Below are positions 2,641 to 46,025 of a stretch of DNA of 64,000 nucleotides, piece after piece. Origin of the DNA: Omnitrophica bacterium GWA2_41_15 (GTDB lineage Bacteria; Omnitrophota; Gorgyraeia; Ghiorseimicrobiales; Ghiorseimicrobiaceae). The stretch lies in the NCBI GenBank assembly GCA_919902105.1, contig CAKKQO010000023.1:2128-66127 (forward strand). The letters are read 5' to 3'. The first letter of the stretch is position 1; every line of letters starts with the position of its first letter. Both the position numbers and the translations under genes were made by a program. Under the pieces are notes generated by a model. It did not search any database. It was not told the DNA's origin and was given only the letters and a program-made list of their open reading frames with translations.

Positions 2641-5148
<2,508 letters not shown>

Positions 5149-5188
5149 TTCTATAAGGTTTTCTCTATTAAATAAAGGTTACATTTAC

Positions 5189-5360
5189 ATAATGAAAATT
5201 TTATGCGCCGCACGGAAATTTTTTGCCGACTGCTGCGATTTACAACTCGCAAATTTGCCGAAATTCCCTTACGGTCAGTTTCGGCATTTACTCATTGTAA
5301 TCTCTGGCAGTCTTTTGCCAAAAAATTTCTAATTGTGCTTGCTCATAAAATTTTCATTAT
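5189..5360. repeat. About 172 nt whole-length imperfect hairpin element (element E)
   Basis: Perfect 17-bp terminal inverted repeat, ATAATGAAAATTTTATG (5189-5205) with CATAAAATTTTCATTAT (5344-5360). Inner arms are also complementary (GAAATTTTTTGCCGACTGC / GCAGTCTTTTGCCAAAAAATTTC). Central hairpin TGCCGAAA..TTTCGGCA. Confidence 0.8.
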
Positions 5361-5388
5361 AATAAATTATCGCACCCTTAAACTTTGC

Positions 5389-5416
5389 TTGACTTTCTTG
5401 GGTAATGTGGTATAGT
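5389..5416 (+). promoter_or_regulatory. Candidate sigma70-type promoter for the OmpA-like gene
   Basis: TTGACT, 16-nt spacer, TGgTATAGT (extended -10), about 60 nt upstream of the AGGAGG-ATG at 5479. Confidence 0.45.
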
Positions 5417-5478
5417 TTTAGATAATTATAATTACCCGCCTAAAATATTCTAATAATATTTTTAATCAGGAGGTAGAG

Positions 5479-6156
5479 ATGTTGAGAGATGTAAAAAAAG
5501 GAATGTGGGTATTTTTTATTTTGGCATTAGCGGTTACGTTGAGCAGTTGCACTATAATTTTCCAGAAAGGAAGAAAGTCGGATGTCTCTCAAATAGAGAC
5601 TTTGAGCAAGCGGTTAAGTGAACTCGAGGATGTTAAAAAATTACTAGAGGAAAGGCTAAAGCAAGAAATTGCCGATAAACAGGTAAAGTTAGAAATGGCA
5701 GAGAAGGGTTTAGTGATTACCTTTCTTGCCGATATTCTCTTTGATTCAGGAAAGGCAGAAATCAGGCCGACAGCTTACGCGGCTTTAGATAAAATCGCTC
5801 GGGTGTTGAGTGAAAACGTCCCGGATATGAATGTAGGCATTGAAGGGCACACCGATAATGTTGCGATTAAACATTCAGGGTGGAAGTCTAACTGGGAGTT
5901 ATCGGCCCATCGCGCCTTAAGCGTATTGCATTATTTAGCAAACAAAAAAGGAGTTGCAGGAGAAAGAGTTTCGGCGATCGGCTATGGAGAGTTTCGTCCC
6001 GTCGCCTCCAATGATAGTAAAGAAGGGCGTCAGCTTAACCGCCGGGTAGAGATTGTTATCTTACCTAAGGTAACTAAGATAAAAAAGGCAGAAGCTAATA
6101 TGCCTCAAGAAGCACCGGCTGCTGAAGAAGTTGGGCAGGAAGAGAATTTGAAATAG
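5479..6156 (+). CDS. OmpA/MotB-domain peptidoglycan-binding lipoprotein with coiled-coil linker
   Basis: Signal plus lipobox (LTLSSC). C-terminal OmpA_C-like motifs (FDSGKAEI, GHTDN, NWELSAHRA, NRRVEIV). Strong RBS AGGAGG. Confidence 0.8.
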   Translation: MLRDVKKGMWVFFILALAVTLSSCTIIFQKGRKSDVSQIETLSKRLSELEDVKKLLEERLKQEIADKQVKLEMAEKGLVITFLADILFDSGKAEIRPTAYAALDKIARVLSENVPDMNVGIEGHTDNVAIKHSGWKSNWELSAHRALSVLHYLANKKGVAGERVSAIGYGEFRPVASNDSKEGRQLNRRVEIVILPKVTKIKKAEANMPQEAPAAEEVGQEENLK

Positions 6157-6663: not shown

Positions 6664-6669
6664 GTTAAC

Positions 6670-6789
6670 CCCGTTAGAGATAACACATCTCACTAAGCAA
6701 GCGGGGTTTGATAATTATGGAAGCATGAGTTTTATCGAGCGCAGGATCTTAAAGAGACGGTCGTCTAAAGACGACCTATCTCTAACGGG
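6670..6789. repeat. 120-nt element closed by a perfect 13-bp inverted repeat
   Basis: CCCGTTAGAGATA (6670-6682) pairs with TATCTCTAACGGG (6777-6789). Internal hairpin GGTCGTC-TAAA-GACGACC (6759-6776). The element ends 7 nt before the uppS ATG. Confidence 0.7.
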
Positions 6790-6796
6790 ATAAAAT

Positions 6797-7498: not shown

Positions 7499-8319
7499 CG
7501 GTTAAAAGGATAATCAGCGCATTATTTTTAATCACCTTAAGTGTCTCCGTAATTTTACTTGACTATCACTTTAAAATGCATTGGCCTTTTAGTTTTTTAA
7601 TTATCTTTTTAATCGGCGCGGGACTTTATGAATTTTTTACCCTCATAGAGCGTAAGGGCATTAAAATTTATAAATATTTCGGGATTGCAGTCGGGTTGCT
7701 TATCCCGCTTTCAATATACCATAAATTTGAGCTTACCAAGGGGTGGGAATTGTTATTTATCGTCCTGCTTTTATTGATTATTTTTTTACTGCAGTTTGCC
7801 CGCCGTGATAGCCGGGGGGCTGTGGAAGGGATTTCCACTTTGTTGTTCGGGATACTTTATATTTCATGGCTGTTTAGCTTTATTATCAAGCTCAGGTATT
7901 TACCTCAAGGGACAGGCCTGGTGGGCGCCCTTTTATTGATAACTAAATCCGGAGATATCGGCGCATATCTTATCGGCACAAGATTTGGCAGGCGCCCGCT
8001 TATTGCCTGGATTAGCCCGAAAAAGTCTATAGAGGGGACCGCAGGCGGATTTATCTTTTCCGTGCTTGCCGCCTTAGCCAGCAAGGTATTCCTTCCGTGG
8101 TTATCTTATGCGCATTGGGCTATGGTAGGGCTTTCTTTAGGGGTTTTAGGACAATTAGGGGACCTTTCAGAATCACTGATTAAACGCGATTGCCGAAGTA
8201 AGGATTCCGGCTTAATATTCCCGGGGATGGGCGGGGTTATGGATATAATTGACAGTTTATTATTTACGGCCCCGGCCTTTTATTTTTATATGAGTTTTTT
8301 AATAAACAAAACACTCTAA
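7495..8319 (+). CDS. cdsA: Phosphatidate cytidylyltransferase
   Basis: Polytopic membrane protein with the C-terminal CTP_transf_1 signature (SLIKRDCRSKDSG..PGMGGVMD..DS). Sits in the conserved uppS-cdsA-dxr-rseP order. Confidence 0.9.
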   Translation: MTVKRIISALFLITLSVSVILLDYHFKMHWPFSFLIIFLIGAGLYEFFTLIERKGIKIYKYFGIAVGLLIPLSIYHKFELTKGWELLFIVLLLLIIFLLQFARRDSRGAVEGISTLLFGILYISWLFSFIIKLRYLPQGTGLVGALLLITKSGDIGAYLIGTRFGRRPLIAWISPKKSIEGTAGGFIFSVLAALASKVFLPWLSYAHWAMVGLSLGVLGQLGDLSESLIKRDCRSKDSGLIFPGMGGVMDIIDSLLFTAPAFYFYMSFLINKTL

Positions 8320-9473: not shown

Positions 9474-10534
9474 TTCCGATTATCATTTTAAGCGTTCTCA
9501 TTATCGTGCATGAATTTGGGCACTTTATTGTTGCCCGGCGCGTCGGCGTTAAAGTAGAGAAGTTTTCTTTGGGATTCGGCCCAAAATTATTCAGCATAAA
9601 AAGAGGCGATACTTTATACCAGCTCTGCGCTATTCCTTTAGGCGGATATATTAAGATGGCAGGCGATGAGTATGGCGAATACAAAGGCGCAAAAGATGAA
9701 TATCTGGCGCAAAAGCCTGCCAATAAAGCCAAGATTATTTTCGCCGGTGCCGGGCTAAATTACTTATTAGGCTTTGTCTTTTTTTCTTTTGCCTTACTCT
9801 TGGGTATCCCTGATTCTACTACAAGGGTGGGAGAGGTTGTATCGGGATATCCTGCTTTTGAGGCGGGAATATTGCCTAAAGACAAAATAATCGCCGTAGA
9901 TGGCAAGAAAGTAGAGTTTTGGATAGAAATGGTGGGGCTTATCCATGGGAAAAAAGGCGCAAAGGTCAATATAGCTTTATCAAGGGCGGATAAACTTATA
10001 GAATTAGAAATGCCTACCAAGTTAGAGGCCATTGAGACTACAGGAGGCAGGCATGAAATATCGCTTATCGGAATAAAACAAGGGCGTTTAAAATATGGGC
10101 TAAAAGATGCATTTGTTGTAGGCATAAAAGATTATTTAAAAACCACATTATTTTATTATAAGACGCTAGGATTAATGTTTAGCGGGAAAATATCTTTTAA
10201 ACGCTCTGTTGCCGGGCCTATCGGGATTTACTATATTACAACTGGGGCGGCTACGGCGGGTTTAGGCCCGTTGTTGTATGTATTGGCCATACTTAGTTTA
10301 AGTTTAAGCGTGATTAATTTGCTGCCCTTTCCGGTATTAGACGGAGGGCATCTTGCCTTTATTGCCTTAGAAAAAATCCGGGGTAAAGCATTGAACAGGA
10401 ATACTGAAGAGTTGATTACTCGGGTAGGGATGAGTCTGTTGATAACGCTTGCGCTTTTTACTATTTATAATGACATGGTGAATTTTTCTATTCTTGATAA
10501 CTTTCTAAACTGGATTAAATCTTTTAAGCGTTAA
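9458..10534 (+). CDS. rseP: RIP site-2 metalloprotease (M50)
   Basis: HEFGH zinc motif in TM1, an internal PDZ-like segment, and C-terminal NLLPFPVLDGGH. Confidence 0.9.
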   Translation: MFNFLVPIIILSVLIIVHEFGHFIVARRVGVKVEKFSLGFGPKLFSIKRGDTLYQLCAIPLGGYIKMAGDEYGEYKGAKDEYLAQKPANKAKIIFAGAGLNYLLGFVFFSFALLLGIPDSTTRVGEVVSGYPAFEAGILPKDKIIAVDGKKVEFWIEMVGLIHGKKGAKVNIALSRADKLIELEMPTKLEAIETTGGRHEISLIGIKQGRLKYGLKDAFVVGIKDYLKTTLFYYKTLGLMFSGKISFKRSVAGPIGIYYITTGAATAGLGPLLYVLAILSLSLSVINLLPFPVLDGGHLAFIALEKIRGKALNRNTEELITRVGMSLLITLALFTIYNDMVNFSILDNFLNWIKSFKR

Positions 10535-10541
10535 CCCTAAT

Positions 10542-10582
10542 AACACCTACGCGGTGTTACAGGTTAACACCGCGTAGGTGTT
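10542..10582. repeat. Perfect 18-bp stem hairpin between rseP and ispG
   Basis: AACACCTACGCGGTGTTA-CAGGT-TAACACCGCGTAGGTGTT. No T-run follows. Confidence 0.85.
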
Positions 10583-10601
10583 GCAGGTTGTGAAGAACGG
10601 T

Positions 10602-13467: not shown

Positions 13468-13476
13468 CTTAAATGA

Positions 13477-13537
13477 ACCCCGCCTTATAAGATACCGTAA
13501 AATTTTCTATCAATAATTTTACGGTATTCGGCGGGGT
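13477..13537. repeat. 61-nt compound hairpin between rimP and nusA
   Basis: Outer stem ACCCCGCC/GGCGGGGT. Inner perfect 13-bp stem ATACCGTAAAATT (13492-13504) / AATTTTACGGTAT (13515-13527). Confidence 0.8.
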
Positions 13538-13602
13538 CAATTCGCGCAAATAATTTACCTCAGTTTCACTTCTGTAAATTATGCGCTCATTGAGGGGGAA
13601 TA

Positions 13603-19817: not shown

Positions 19818-19992
19818 TTTTTTAACGGGTCCTGTCAAGGTTGTGCTTTCGCAAAAACGCTCGGTTTTCTCCAGCGAAGAAAACCTTCGCTCGGCAGTCG
19901 GCGTGCGCTCTGCCGATTTTCATCGGCAGCCATGTCCGCTTTGCGCCTCCTACGTTTTGCTTAAAGCACAAACCTTGCCACCCGCTAAAAAA
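19818..19992. repeat. About 175 nt whole-length imperfect hairpin element (element D)
   Basis: Begins on the base after the ruvB stop. Arms TTTTTTAACGGGT..CAAGGTTGTGCTTT..AAAACG and CGTTTTGC..AAAGCACAAACCTTG..ACCCGCTAAAAAA. Internal hairpins GGTTTTC..GAAAACC and CTGCCGAT-TTTC-ATCGGCAG. Confidence 0.8.
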
Positions 19993-20005
19993 TTGTTAAT
20001 GTATT

Positions 20006-20044
20006 TTGCTAAATCGTCAATTCGCTCAACCGACACAACAATAT
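20006..20044 (+). repeat. Solo 3'-arm-like fragment of the about 208 nt element family
   Basis: TTGCTAAATCGTCAATTCGCTCAACCGACACAACAATAT resembles the 3' arms TTGCTAAAATTGCAATGCGTTCAAGCGACACAATATAT (copy A) and GGCTAAAATTGCAATTCGCTCAAATGACACAGC (copy B). Confidence 0.6.
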
Positions 20045-20201
20045 CCTCTTAGAATATATTTAGCAGAGAAAAAGCGAACTCCGTTTATTAATTGTTACAT
20101 ATAAATATATTAAGGGGGGCGAGATGGAACGAAGGGAAGAGGGACACTCCTTGTAACATATTGTAAATTATAAGGTTACCATTATATTTATAGGTTTATA
20201 A

Positions 20202-22288: not shown

Positions 22289-22301
22289 AGTTTTACTAGA
22301 A

Positions 22302-22506
22302 ATATATTATGTCGTTTTCACTTAGATGCAATTTTTTAACGCAAAGGTCTTTCACAATTTCGGTGGCTGCGGAACTCGTTCTTCGGCACCTTCGTGCCAA
22401 GAATGAACTCAAACATCCTCGCCACCCCGATATAGACCATCGGGGTTCCCGCAATTCCTCAAGCTGCTTTGCTAAAATTGCAATGCGTTCAAGCGACACA
22501 ATATAT
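22302..22506 (+). repeat. About 205 nt whole-length hairpin element, family copy A
   Basis: Terminal arms ATATATTATGTCG / CGACACAATATAT. Shared core CTGCGGAACTCGTTCTTCGGCACCTTCGTGCCAAGAATGAACTCAAACAT. Internal hairpin CCCCGAT..ATCGGGG. Confidence 0.9.
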
Positions 22507-22532
22507 TTCTTCTAATAAATTAATTAAAAAAT

Positions 22533-26185: not shown

Positions 26186-26911
26186 ATGCCTAATTTACTT
26201 TATGAAAGGCAGATGCTTCGGCAGGGTTTTAGTTTTGTCGGTGGTGTAGATGAGGCAGGCCGCGGCCCTTTAGCAGGGCCGGTAGTGGCTGCCGCGGTAA
26301 TTTTAAAAAAGACAAAGTTTAAAAATAGAATTGATGATTCGAAAATACTTTCTCCTTTAGCCCGAAAGAGGGCCTATTGCGAGATAGTAGAGAATTCTTT
26401 TTTCGGGATAGGCGTTATTTCCGAAGTAATTATTGACGCAGAAAATATCTTAAAGGCGACTATCCTTGCTATGGAAAATGCCATAACCTCTTGTGTTGAT
26501 AAAATTAAAAAAAATTCTAATGTTTGTTTTTTGATAGACGGAAGAAACATAACGCTTGATATTCCCTGTAAGTTTAGGTGTATCGTTGACGGAGACGCAA
26601 AGTGCATGTCAATTTCAGCCGCCTCTATCGTTGCAAAGGTAACACGCGATCGGATTATGCAGATCTACGATAAGATTTACCCCGCATATGGTTTTAAGCA
26701 GCATAAAGGGTATGGAACGCGCGAGCATATTCTGAATTTAAAAAAAGCAGGGGCATCAGCGATACATAGAAAAACATTTTGTCCGGTCAAGCAAAATCTG
26801 CCAACTGGCGATTTCCGCCAAAGGCGGATCCGCCAAAGGCGGAAGATTTTGTGCGATGCCGCACATGCTTGTGCGGCGCAAGTAAATGTGCAATGCATAA
26901 TATTGCTTTAG
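26186..26911 (+). CDS. rnhB: Ribonuclease HII with a repeat-encoded C-terminal extension
   Basis: [25 protein letters not shown] motifs. The last roughly 30 codons (after ..FCPVKQNL) are read through hairpin repeats. Confidence 0.9.
26814..26880. repeat. Tandem 15-mer mini-hairpins plus a second hairpin at the rnhB/yraN junction
   Basis: TCCGCCAAAGGCGGA x2 (26814-26843), each itself a hairpin. Then GTGCGATGCCGCAC-ATGCTT-GTGCGGCGCA (26851-26880). Confidence 0.85.
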
Positions 26912-27276: not shown

Positions 27277-28971
27277 ATGCTAAGCGATATTGAGATAGCA
27301 CAGGCGGCAAAACTAAAGCCAGTCCAGAAAATAGCCGCATCTATCGGTATCAAAGAAACCGATTTGGAACTATACGGAAAGTATAAAGCTAAAGTTCTGC
27401 CCACTGCTTTAAAAAAGATAAAGACTAAAAGGCAGGCGAAATATGTTTTAGTTACAGCAATTACGCCTACGCCCTTAGGTGAGGGTAAAACCGTAACCAC
27501 TATTGGCCTATCCATGGCGCTAAATAGGATAGGCAAAAAAGCTATTGCTTGTATCCGCCAGCCGTCGCTTGGCCCAGTCTTTGGGATTAAAGGAGGGGCG
27601 GCCGGAGGCGGGTATTCGCAGGTAGTGCCGATGGAAGATTTTAACCTGCATTTAACCGGCGATGTGCATGCCGTAGGACTTGCGCATAATTTATGCGCCG
27701 CTTTTTTGGAGAACGCTTTATTCAGGAAAAAACTTAATATTGACCATAAAGCCGTTTTTTGGCGAAGAGTTCTAGATGTAAGCGACAGGTCATTACGTAA
27801 AATCAGCGTTGGTTTAGATGATAAGGTAGATGGGGTTTATCCCAGAGAGACCGGTTTTGATATTACAGTGGCGTCTGAAATAATGGCAATTTTAGCGCTT
27901 TCAAGTGATCTCCAGGATTTACGCCGTCGTCTCGGCAGGATTGTCTTAGCCAAGACTTTTGACGGTAAATATGTTACCCCTGAAGATTTAAAGGTTGCCG
28001 GCTCAATGGCAGCGCTTTTAAAAGACGCGGTGCACCCAAATTTAATGCAGACTTTGGATAATACTCCTGTCTTTGTGCATGCCGGGCCGTTTGCCAATAT
28101 CGCGCATGGAAATAGCTCTATTATCGCCGATAAAATCGCGGTAAGTTTAGCGGATTTTGTAGTAACAGAGGCAGGCTTTGGCGCAGACTGCGGGGCAGAG
28201 AAATTTTTTGATATTAAATGCCGCGTCAGCGGCCTTAAGCCGGATGCGGCAGTTTTAGTCTGCACCGTGCGCGCCTTAAAAATGCACTCTGGTAAATTTA
28301 CGGTTAAGCCGGGCAAGCCGCTTGATGAGGGATTACTCCGTGAGAATCTTCCTGCTATTAGAGAGGGTGCTGCAAACTTAGAAAAACAGATTGAGAATAT
28401 TAAAATTTTTGGTATCCCGGTTGTAGTGACGATTAACAGATTCTCCGCCGATACAGATAAAGAAATCGCCTTAATTAAAGAGATTGCCAAAAATGCCGGA
28501 GCCGAAGATGCGATAGTTAGTGATTTATTCGCCAAGGGCTCAAAAGGCGGAGAGGAATTAGCCGAGAAGATAGTTGAAGTCTCCAAGAAAAAAGCGAATT
28601 TTAAATTTCTTTATGAACTGGATAGCACGATTGAAGAAAAGATGTGGGTAATTGCTACCAAGATTTACGGGGCAAAGGATATTGATATTTCGCCGAAAGC
28701 TTTAGAACAGATAGAAGAATTTAATAAATTAGGTTTTAATGGGCTTCCTCTGTGTATGGCAAAGACGCATTTGTCGCTTTCGCATGACCCGGAATTAAAA
28801 GGACGGCCGAAAGACTTTGTCGTGCCAATCCGCGAAATAAAAGTCTCTGCGGGTGCCGGATTTTTATACGCGCTCTTAGGCGATATGCGCACTATGCCGG
28901 GGTTGCCTTCTGTTCCGGCAGGGACAAAGATAGATATTGATAAAGATGGAAAGATAGTGGGATTGTCATAA
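27277..28971 (+). CDS. fhs: Formate-tetrahydrofolate ligase
   Basis: SDIEIAQ, TPTPLGEGKTT, GIKGGAAGGGY, and PLCMAKT.LS.S near the C-terminus; 564 aa. Confidence 0.97.
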   Translation: MLSDIEIAQAAKLKPVQKIAASIGIKETDLELYGKYKAKVLPTALKKIKTKRQAKYVLVTAITPTPLGEGKTVTTIGLSMALNRIGKKAIACIRQPSLGPVFGIKGGAAGGGYSQVVPMEDFNLHLTGDVHAVGLAHNLCAAFLENALFRKKLNIDHKAVFWRRVLDVSDRSLRKISVGLDDKVDGVYPRETGFDITVASEIMAILALSSDLQDLRRRLGRIVLAKTFDGKYVTPEDLKVAGSMAALLKDAVHPNLMQTLDNTPVFVHAGPFANIAHGNSSIIADKIAVSLADFVVTEAGFGADCGAEKFFDIKCRVSGLKPDAAVLVCTVRALKMHSGKFTVKPGKPLDEGLLRENLPAIREGAANLEKQIENIKIFGIPVVVTINRFSADTDKEIALIKEIAKNAGAEDAIVSDLFAKGSKGGEELAEKIVEVSKKKANFKFLYELDSTIEEKMWVIATKIYGAKDIDISPKALEQIEEFNKLGFNGLPLCMAKTHLSLSHDPELKGRPKDFVVPIREIKVSAGAGFLYALLGDMRTMPGLPSVPAGTKIDIDKDGKIVGLS

Positions 28972-29180
28972 GATAGCTGCTGTATCATTTTCGCTCAGGT
29001 GCAATTTTTATACGCCAAGTTCTCGGCATTTTAAGCGCCTGCGTAACTCGTTCTTCGGCACTTTCGTGCCAGGAATGAACTCAAACATACTCGGCGTCCC
29101 GCTCTCTGAGCGGGATGCCTTAAAATGCCTGTGCGTGCTTGGCTAAAATTGCAATTCGCTCAAATGACACAGCAGCTATC
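28972..29180 (+). repeat. 209 nt whole-length hairpin element, family copy B
   Basis: Perfect terminal arms GATAGCTGCTGT / ACAGCAGCTATC. Sub-terminal GGCATTTTAAG / CTTAAAATGCC. Shared core CTGCGTAACTCGTTCTTCGGCACTTTCGTGCCAGGAATGAACTCAAACAT. Hairpin CCCGCTC-TCTG-AGCGGG. Confidence 0.9.
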
Positions 29181-29188
29181 TAAACAAA

Positions 29189-29662
29189 ATGATGTACAAG
29201 AATCAATCTCTTAAAAAATATCTCGATGATTTGGCGGGAAAGCTGCCCGCACCCGGAGGAGGTAGTGCCGCCGCCCTTAGCGGCGCTTTGGGTTGCGCGC
29301 TTTTGTCAATGGTATCTAACTTTACCGTTGGCAAAGAAAAATACAGGAAATACGAAAAAGAAATAAAAGGTATTTTATTAAAGTGCGAGAGTTATAGGAA
29401 AAGGTTTTTGGAGTTAGTGGATTTAGATGTTAAAACATATTCAGCTTATGCTAACGCTAAAGACAAAAAATCTAAAAGTATGGCGAAAAAAGAATCGCAG
29501 AGAGTAGCTAAAGAAATTAACTCTTTAAGTTATAAAGCAATACAATTATGTTTTCCTTTGGCGGAAAAAGGCAATATATATTTGATAAATGATGTCTTAG
29601 CCGGCGCGGAACTTTTGAGCGCCGCCTTTAATGCGGCGTTGATTAACATAGAAGCCGAATAA
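29189..29662 (+). CDS. fchA: Cyclodeaminase/cyclohydrolase-family protein (methenyl-THF cyclohydrolase FchA-like)
   Basis: LPAPGGGSAAALSGALGCALLSMV signature. Sits between fhs and folD. At 157 aa it is shorter than typical family members. Confidence 0.75.
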   Translation: MMYKNQSLKKYLDDLAGKLPAPGGGSAAALSGALGCALLSMVSNFTVGKEKYRKYEKEIKGILLKCESYRKRFLELVDLDVKTYSAYANAKDKKSKSMAKKESQRVAKEINSLSYKAIQLCFPLAEKGNIYLINDVLAGAELLSAAFNAALINIEAE

Positions 29663-31701: not shown

Positions 31702-32004
31702 ATGTTATCACGAAATAAAATTATAGAAATTTTAAAAAAAGAATTTCCGCGCTTAAAAGCTGAATTTAGCGTAAAAAAGATAGGTATTTTTGGCTCCTAT
31801 GCGACGGGTGCGGCGGGGAAAGCCAGCGATGTGGATATTTTTATAGATTTTACAAAACCCATAGGCCTTAAGTTTATGGATTTAGCCGAGCATTTAGAAA
31901 AAATATTGGGGAAAAAGGTAGATATCTTGACTCCTGCCGGCATAAAGGGCATAAGAATAAAACAAATCTCTCAAAGCATTAAGAAAAGTTTAATCTATGT
32001 CTAA
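31702..32004 (+). CDS. mntA: MNT-type nucleotidyltransferase antitoxin
   Basis: GIFGSYATG...SDVDIFIDF (GS-x-G / DxD minimal nucleotidyltransferase motif). 100 aa. Overlaps the next gene by 8 nt. Confidence 0.85.
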   Translation: MLSRNKIIEILKKEFPRLKAEFSVKKIGIFGSYATGAAGKASDVDIFIDFTKPIGLKFMDLAEHLEKILGKKVDILTPAGIKGIRIKQISQSIKKSLIYV

Positions 32005-32341
32005 AAGAGCGGACAAGGATTTACTTAGCGATATCAAAGAATCTATCCTGCGGATAAATAGATATAGCGATAAGGTAACTTATGCGGAATTTATGCGGGA
32101 TACCAAAATCCAGGATGCGGTAGTGCGTAACATTGAAATTATCGGCGAGGCGGTAAAGAATTTATCTGAAGCAGAAAGAAGAAAGTATCCAAAAGTCCCA
32201 TGGAAAGAGTTAGCCAAAATGAGAGATAGGCTTATTCACCATTATTTCGGGGTTAATTACGAAATTGTTTGGAGTATAATCAGAGAAGAATTACCGAATA
32301 TTGCGGCAGGGCTTAAGATGAGTAGCGGGGGATTAAAATGA
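31997..32341 (+). CDS. hepT: HEPN/DUF86 RNase toxin
   Basis: R-x4-H motif (RDRLIHHYF). 114 aa. Classic MNT-HEPN pair order. Confidence 0.85.
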   Translation: MSKRADKDLLSDIKESILRINRYSDKVTYAEFMRDTKIQDAVVRNIEIIGEAVKNLSEAERRKYPKVPWKELAKMRDRLIHHYFGVNYEIVWSIIREELPNIAAGLKMSSGGLK

Positions 32342-45779: not shown

Positions 45780-45789
45780 TACTATAAAG

Positions 45790-45997
45790 CAGGTTATTAT
45801 TCATTTTGAACGATTTGCAATTTTCGTCAGGAGTCGTAGAGATTTTAAGGTTCCCCGCCAACGGCGGGGCGCCGAGGACTGTCTGAATTCATTCCTGGCA
45901 CGGAACGTGCCGAAGAATGAGTTCCGCAGGTGCCTTAAAATATCGAGAAGCTGACGTTAAAAAATTGCATCAGAGTGAAAAATGACATAATAACATG
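45790..45997 (-). repeat. 208 nt whole-length hairpin element, family copy C (inverted relative to A and B)
   Basis: The reverse complement aligns with copies A and B: core CTGCGGAACTCATTCTTCGGCACGTTCCGTGCCAGGAATGAATTCAGACA, hairpin CCCCGCC-GTT-GGCGGGG, arms CAGGTTATTATTCATTTT.. / ..GAAAAATGACATAATAACATG. Confidence 0.9.
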
Positions 45998-46025
45998 CTG
46001 TATGCTATGATGATTAATTAGTTTT

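Follow-up and report, generated by a model that had tools for sequence, protein, structure and literature searches.

What is a 172-nt palindrome doing between purA and the next gene of an uncultured Omnitrophota bacterium, and how did it come to be there? It could be one copy of a mobile repeat, a structure selected for its effect on neighbouring transcripts, part of a coding or small RNA gene, or a palindrome that grew where it now stands. The explanation preferred here, to which we give close to an even chance, is that the element is a strain-specific and dispensable non-coding orphan palindrome, occupying a hot spot of hairpin turnover between the purA stop codon and the promoter of the OmpA-family gene (ompA).

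Genomic setting

The window, meaning the whole 64,000-nt stretch of DNA that was analysed, carries every credible gene of at least 120 codons on the plus strand (positions 1-64000). It also holds a toxin-antitoxin-like pair of overlapping genes at 31702-32341, the first encoding an MntA-type nucleotidyltransferase (PF01909, E 3e-15) and the second a HepT-like ribonuclease (PF01934, E 3e-28).

The gene upstream of the element is purA, encoding adenylosuccinate synthetase (3880-5148, plus strand; Pfam PF00709, E 1e-178), the last gene of a tightly packed row. Downstream lies an OmpA/MotB-family gene (5479-6156, plus strand; Pfam PF00691), homologues of which are named OmpA family in Candidatus Omnitrophota. 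This gene has its own promoter-like site at 5389-5416 on the plus strand, consisting of TTGACT, 16 nt and TG-TATAGT, and an AGGAGG site at 5468-5473. The candidate promoter had been proposed in the original prediction, and it is real as a consensus match (10/12) and is kept in every relative examined, according to the alignments.

The spacer between the two genes is 330 nt long in the window, of which 240 nt separate the purA stop codon from the -35 hexamer. To the left of the element is a non-folding spacer remnant (5149-5188, plus strand), whose first 10 nt, TTCTATAAGG, match both sister strains and outgroups. To the right is a second remnant (5361-5388, plus strand), in which TTAAACTTTGC is kept in relatives directly upstream of the -35 hexamer, as seen in the alignments. 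The element thus ends 28 nt ahead of the conserved ompA -35.

Structure of the palindrome

The element is a long imperfect palindrome (5189-5360) that begins with ATAATG and ends with CATTAT; neither it nor its arms are assigned a strand. The original prediction of a non-coding element of about 170 nt, folding from end to end in the spacer of co-directional genes, holds in both the folds and the gene map. The terminal arms, ATAATGAAAATTTTATG (5189-5205) and the A+T-rich CATAAAATTTTCATTAT (5344-5360, some 30-45 nt upstream of the ompA -35 hexamer), are 17 nt each and had been described as exact reverse complements, which the sequence itself and a repeat finder confirm. When extended, the arms reach 20 nt at 95% identity, and past the ends of the element and a small bulge there is a weaker 5-bp pairing (5183-5187 with 5363-5367). 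Further inside, GAAATTTTTTG (5215-5225) and CAAAAAATTTC (5319-5329) form a perfect pair of 11-nt arms, detected by the repeat finder and seen in the folds. The tip of the folded structure is a central hairpin at 5256-5286, formed by TGCCGAAATT and AGTTTCGGCA. The claim that the interior is self-complementary around a TGCCGAAATT..AGTTTCGGCA centre is therefore borne out by this hairpin and by the alignment of arm against arm, which gives 65 matches, 11 mismatches and 20 gap columns.

Folding energies were compared with those of 200 dinucleotide-preserving shuffles, a control that the original prediction had asked for, and the fold proved exceptional. As RNA, the element folds at -62.3 kcal/mol on the plus strand (z -9.6) and at -70.4 kcal/mol on the minus strand (z -11.0); as DNA, it folds at -39.4 kcal/mol (z -8.1). 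In all three cases alike, 0 of the 200 shuffles matched it. The centre (5245-5307) folded alone reaches -14.9 kcal/mol (z -3.3). Perfect inverted repeats of at least 17 bp with a loop of at most 200 nt occur at three places in the window, and at none in 40 first-order Markov resamples of it. The fold and the termini of the element far exceed chance.

Two further features of the arms bear on how the element is to be interpreted. The mismatches between the arms are of mixed types, with no G-U excess on either strand, and so give no pointer to RNA-level selection acting on one of the strands. In addition, TA flanks both sides of a 14-nt core repeat, ATGAAAATTTTATG..CATAAAATTTTCAT, and complementarity continues outside the element; since TA is its own complement, a TA duplication is indistinguishable here from an extension of the palindrome.

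Assembly support and a possible second allele

The window (G+C content 40.8%) matches contig Hain_H51_02um_R1_52 of ENA assembly ERZ1292641, from Hainich groundwater. Over the 7.3 kb compared, the two differ at one place, where the ENA contig has a neighbouring hairpin, that of 6665-6794, twice in tandem. The element itself is 100% identical in this independent contig (L001/L005), and Logan contigs from two further samples contain its outer parts, each attached to the unique flank that belongs to it. The element is no product of misassembly. A fold-back chimera might have been suspected from the fact that Logan contigs break within the element, but in view of the identical independent assembly and of the correctly flanked outer arms this explanation is scarcely credible.

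The central 63 nt (5245-5307, no strand assigned) are uncovered by k=31 Logan contigs, of which those from two samples end at 5244 while another begins at 5308. A central inversion was rejected as the cause, given that the bases beside 5244 and 5308 are not complementary, as was a flip between the 11-bp inner arms, which would branch at 5226 and not at 5244. The same Logan contig also ends at 6789, where strains differ by the tandem copy of the next hairpin. By analogy with that end, a second allele differing in 5245-5307 (or a graph branch) probably co-exists with the one in the window.

The spacer in related strains

In the 90% protein clusters to which PurA and OmpA of the window belong, the other members are 95-97% (PurA) and 92-97% (OmpA) identical to the proteins of the window. 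Synteny is kept in all relatives, running from an HMGL-like gene through purA, the OmpA-family gene and a gene for a 133-aa protein to uppS and onward. Across all relatives, the OmpA-family gene has a near-invariant promoter, leader and ribosome-binding site, and the window is 97.4% identical to one sister sequence (L007) from 5380 on, versus 91.8% upstream of 5142.

The stretch between the purA stop codon and the -35 hexamer, by contrast with this conserved promoter region, differs in every lineage compared. In the sister sequences L022 and L026, from Hainich well H41, it is 184 nt long and contains four consecutive hairpins, different from that of the window (z -5.8); the whole purA-ompA spacer of L022 is 272 nt. 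Two hairpins are present in L025 and L027, in spacers of about 200 nt where the stop codon and the -35 are separated by 119 and 111 nt, respectively. The distance is only 27 nt in L024, which has no hairpin, and 30 nt in L007 and L008, which have no meaningful one. At least five spacer states thus occur among strains that are 95-97% identical in PurA, and strains carrying entirely different structured inserts are only 3-8% apart. None of the inserts in sister strains is homologous to the element. The points of insertion also differ: the extra DNA lies between AAGG and TTAAACTTT in the window and between CTTTGC and TTGACT in L022, which indicates independent events. Three outgroups (L009, L010 and L016), whose OmpA proteins are 77-79% identical, lack the element as well, and their spacers of 69-109 nt fold no better than shuffles.

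These comparisons show that different strains of one Omnitrophota population cluster carry mutually unrelated hairpins, or none, at this site. The element is lineage-specific and, since L024 and L007/L008 have no meaningful hairpin there, dispensable; it occupies a narrow hypervariable slot beside a constrained promoter.

Some resemblances to the spacers of relatives were nevertheless seen. The centre of the element, AATTTGCCGAAATTCCCTTAC, matches AATTTCGGAATTCCCTAAC in L016 at 19 of 21 nt (p 0.003, uncorrected over eight tests), and the similarity between the element and the L022 spacer has an uncorrected p of 0.02. A 9-mer in the left arm of the element, TGCGCCGCA, recurs in L022, L025 and L027, where it belongs to the first hairpin and lies about as far from the purA stop codon as in the window. 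Parts of the element could, on this marginal evidence, descend from older spacer sequence.

A low-coverage Hainich contig (L023, positions 1-400) has the four-hairpin block and the OmpA-family gene joined leftward to sequence other than purA. The junction is the start of the first hairpin, and represents either a rearrangement or a chimeric assembly.

Searches for copies

The original prediction called for a search with the termini, and implied a further repeat family of the kind found elsewhere in the window (A/B/C, described below). Such a family is unsupported: the element is single-copy, is missing from sister strains and outgroups, and has no relatives in any of the DNA searched, including about 74 kb of its own genome. 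Within the window, searches with the termini (up to three mismatches), blastn (word size 7) and nhmmer returned only the element itself and its own reverse complement, and matches to the termini elsewhere, at up to three mismatches, did not go beyond chance. No copy turned up either in another 10 kb of this contig or in about 100 kb of sequence from relatives.

Public collections gave the same picture. Among GTDB species genomes (596 Gb), paired 14-nt termini produced one match only, in a Raineya MAG; it lies inside what reads as a metallophosphoesterase-like coding region, its interior is unrelated, and it is attributed to chance. In JGI metagenomes, the terminus pair matched three contigs of one metagenome, none of them a relative: all represent a low-complexity TTTATGA-repeat palindrome with an unrelated interior that has only the 14-mer in common with the element. 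In IMG/VR, the terminus pair gave one chance match and the inner-arm pair none, and collections of plasmids and phages left the element unmatched. No Rfam family was matched at its gathering threshold, and membership of any was rejected on that ground; the best sub-threshold score, 26.5 bits against a threshold of 211, belongs to a plant miRNA precursor model and is of a generic long-hairpin type.

The collection scans demanded exact termini of 12-14 nt at both ends, which diverged copies would escape, and the search of the element's own genome covered about 74 kb (the 64-kb window and 10 kb more), which a family of low density could escape. As far as these searches can tell, the element is an orphan, with no dispersed repeat family to which it demonstrably belongs. 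Of the three results that the original prediction named as refuting it, two, a single copy and a lack of relatives, hold for the DNA searched, and the third does not, the fold being exceptional.

Other hairpins in the window

A dispersed family does exist in the window. The A/B/C family has at least three good copies and one diverged copy within 64 kb, each about 220 nt long: 22293-22515 (plus strand), 28962-29190 (plus strand), 45790-46005 (inverted) and, diverged, approximately 19830-20050. The copies share a conserved core, branched into two inner hairpins, and a long outer stem that varies in sequence from copy to copy while pairing is maintained; 20 of 75 predicted pairs are changed on both sides in the three copies compared. 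In the copy at 28962-29190, the termini extend into both flanking genes, over the stop codon of the one upstream and the start codon of the one downstream. An Rfam search with the family was without match. A/B/C is a genuine dispersed family, and it could represent either a structured RNA not described before or palindromic mobile DNA with homogenisation of its arms. Since such a family is readily detected in 64 kb, the orphan status of the element at 5189-5360, and of nearly all hairpins at its locus, becomes more telling.

Comparison of the element with A/B/C bears out the claim that the two are unrelated in sequence. The further claim that they share a design stands in part. Both have a long outer stem, are of comparable size (about 220 nt in A/B/C) and occupy spacers that separate co-directional genes in one genome, but A/B/C is multi-copy and branched at its core, with compensatory changes in its pairs, and the element is an orphan.

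The neighbouring hairpin at 6665-6794 is 130 nt long, has the termini CCCCGTTAGAGATA and TATCTCTAACGGG and adjoins a TTAA. It is present as one copy in the window, missing in L007 (site 8190-8205) and L027, and doubled in tandem in the ENA contig (L001 5790-6040, with the junction CTAACGGGGTTAAACCCCGTTAG). Both alleles probably co-exist, as a Logan contig ends exactly at 6789. The matching site in L009 (11197-11349) has about 150 nt with three other, unrelated hairpins, and that in the outgroup L010 has 12 nt. The site of 6665-6794 is a second slot of hairpin turnover.

Smaller structures are found in other spacers. A 73-nt insert at 10529-10601 is missing from L007, where the two flanking genes abut; it includes a perfect palindrome (10542-10582) of 18 bp around a 5-nt loop. 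The first spacer hairpin of L022 (3760-3790), CTTGCGCCGCAAAAGAATTTGCGGCAT, resembles CTTGCGCCGCACAAGCATGTGCGGCAT in another spacer, at 26856-26882 on the minus strand of the window, and the two may represent a small dispersed REP-like hairpin. Other spacers of the window likewise fold well beyond shuffles, with z values of -6.3 at 13468-13602 and -5.4 at 45780-46025.

Comparison with known elements

ERIC/IRU sequences of enterobacteria and Correia (NEMIS) sequences of Neisseria are transcribed palindromic MITE-like repeats of 100-170 nt. Each family numbers tens to hundreds of copies per genome that share a recognisable consensus, Correia repeats have a TA duplication, and the RNA hairpins of both families can alter mRNA processing or stability. 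The element resembles them in being an imperfect palindrome over its whole length, intergenic, non-coding and strain-variable in its presence, and in forming a long hairpin. It differs in that no second copy or relative was found and that unrelated hairpins occupy the same site in sister strains. By this comparison, the element would work most like ERIC/IRU or Correia-type repeats, and MITEs in general; as far as the searches reach, it has neither multiple copies nor a consensus, and it is therefore not assigned to any ERIC, Correia or MITE family. With MITEs it has in common a small size (below about 500 bp), terminal inverted repeats, A+T-rich ends, a lack of coding capacity and a possible TA duplication. 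Unlike theirs, its complementarity spans the whole element and not the ends alone, and its copy number is one in about 74 kb of its own genome and none in the loci of relatives.

Two other classes of palindromic repeat were considered and rejected. REP, BIME and REPIN elements are palindromes of 20-40 nt that occur in very many copies and are associated with a RAYT gene; the element is 172 nt long and single-copy, and the gene tables, which cover parts of the window, contain no RAYT-like gene. Integron attC sites do not fit either, as the ends of the element do not follow the RYYYAAC/GTTRRRY pattern and its flanks are purA and a syntenic OmpA-family gene kept in all relatives, not cassette genes.

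A model of a different kind is provided by mutation. Ripley-type template-switch mutation makes or extends quasi-palindromes, usually in events of tens of nucleotides, and in a locally generated inverted duplication the newest part is the most perfectly paired. Quasi-palindromes of this origin are single-copy hairpins, which is consistent with the orphan status of the element and with a hot spot occupied by unrelated hairpins; compared with known events, a structure of 172 nt would take more than one round to build, in fact several. Switching of the template between the arms of an inverted repeat is described in PMC8604942.

Alternative explanations

The element may be the solo visible copy of a dispersed MITE family, with terminal inverted repeats of 14-17 bp, insertion at TA, mobilisation in trans by a transposase encoded elsewhere in the genome and its other copies beyond the 74 kb or so that were searched. 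Much about it would fit: it is short, non-coding and intergenic, with perfect 17-bp termini; TA stands on both sides of ATGAAAATTTTATG..CATAAAATTTTCAT, as in a classical MITE with TA duplication; presence and absence vary between close strains; the same genome tolerates another multi-copy hairpin family in A/B/C; and the small L022 hairpin does have a relative, at window 26856-26882. Yet neither the window, nor 10 kb more of the contig, nor any relative yielded a second copy, the paired termini had no real match in the 596 Gb of species genomes or in JGI metagenomes, and no transposase appears in the gene tables, which cover about 1-11 kb and 51-64 kb of the window and 10 kb beyond. Complementarity also runs past the supposed ends (5183-5187 with 5363-5367), there is no clean empty site, as the flanking spacer sequence differs too, and the other hairpins at this locus are orphans as well, bar one. 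An inserted MITE is thus a possible but rather unlikely explanation. Selection for a structure acting in cis, whether as a terminator or insulator, as a site for RNase III or for blocking exonucleases, or through a UP-like right arm that tunes the ompA promoter, is judged to be improbable. L024 and L007/L008 have no meaningful hairpin, so that the structure is dispensable, and there is no conservation, hence no covariation, and no G-U bias. An intrinsic (Rho-independent) terminator was rejected: no terminator-like site was found in 4800-5800, and the base of the stem is A/U-rich and followed by AATAAATTATCG, with no T run, in a genome that has canonical terminators, such as AAAACGGGGGATAAAAATCCCCCGTTTTG just past the next gene but one. 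In favour of a selected structure are its position, exactly where a terminator would be expected, between the end of a gene row and a conserved -35 that follows 28 nt later, the occurrence of hairpins there in outgroups and some sister strains also, and the A/T tracts of the right arm and its flank, at about -30 to -60.

A coding or small RNA function is very improbable. Open reading frames of 70 codons (5203-5415, plus strand) and 46 codons (5192-5332) are present, and a small or antisense RNA could start from a promoter-like match on the minus strand (5321-5294, TTGGCA-16-TACAAT, 10/12). That match weighs little by itself, since the region contains seven promoter-like matches where 3.1 are expected by chance, and Rfam gives only generic long-hairpin matches, of the plant miRNA precursor model, far below the threshold of 211. 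Protein searches, Pfam and the comparison with sister strains agree that the 70-codon frame is not a gene, and the lack of a coding signature noted in the original prediction is upheld. It has no homologue among 5.8e9 clustered proteins, a search of 1.84e9 protein representatives gave one spurious match to a repeat protein (E 4e-4), Pfam was searched without a match, and gene callers left it uncalled on the ENA contig. The frame also crosses the conserved ompA promoter and is missing in sister strains. Its lack of homologues implies, in addition, that no copy of the element is called elsewhere as such an ORF.

Origin and possible function

The element could have arrived as a palindromic mobile element, or the palindrome could have grown in place as replication switched templates. 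Local turnover of an orphan palindrome, with growth by template switching counted in, is slightly favoured over insertion, given that nearly all hairpins of the locus are orphans while a dispersed family is easily seen in the same window; the preference is tentative, and the probability attached to local turnover falls a little short of one half.

Whatever its origin, the element lies downstream of the last gene of the row and upstream of the next promoter, and it would most likely form the 3' tail of transcripts from the purA operon. In that tail it is predicted to fold into an imperfect stem-loop of about 80 bp, which could hold up 3' exonucleases or serve as a target for a double-strand-specific RNase and would thereby separate the purA transcripts from ompA transcription. 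The element probably carries no sequence-specific function.

It may also be that long hairpins are born in place in the purA-ompA spacer and its neighbours alike, with repeated template switching creating and extending palindromes and with A/B/C representing a stage at which a hairpin has begun to spread. This broader proposal is doubtful. If true, it would allow the de novo emergence of structured elements to be followed in a natural setting.

Implications

The element alone carries very little weight, being another dispensable intergenic palindrome of an uncultured bacterium. More interesting than the element itself are the A/B/C family, with its covarying pairs, and the hypervariable slot in which the hairpins sit. 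The locus offers a clean natural case of fast hairpin turnover beside a fully conserved promoter and, for annotators of Omnitrophota genomes, it is a warning that a long hairpin in a spacer, even a very stable one, is not necessarily a conserved RNA.
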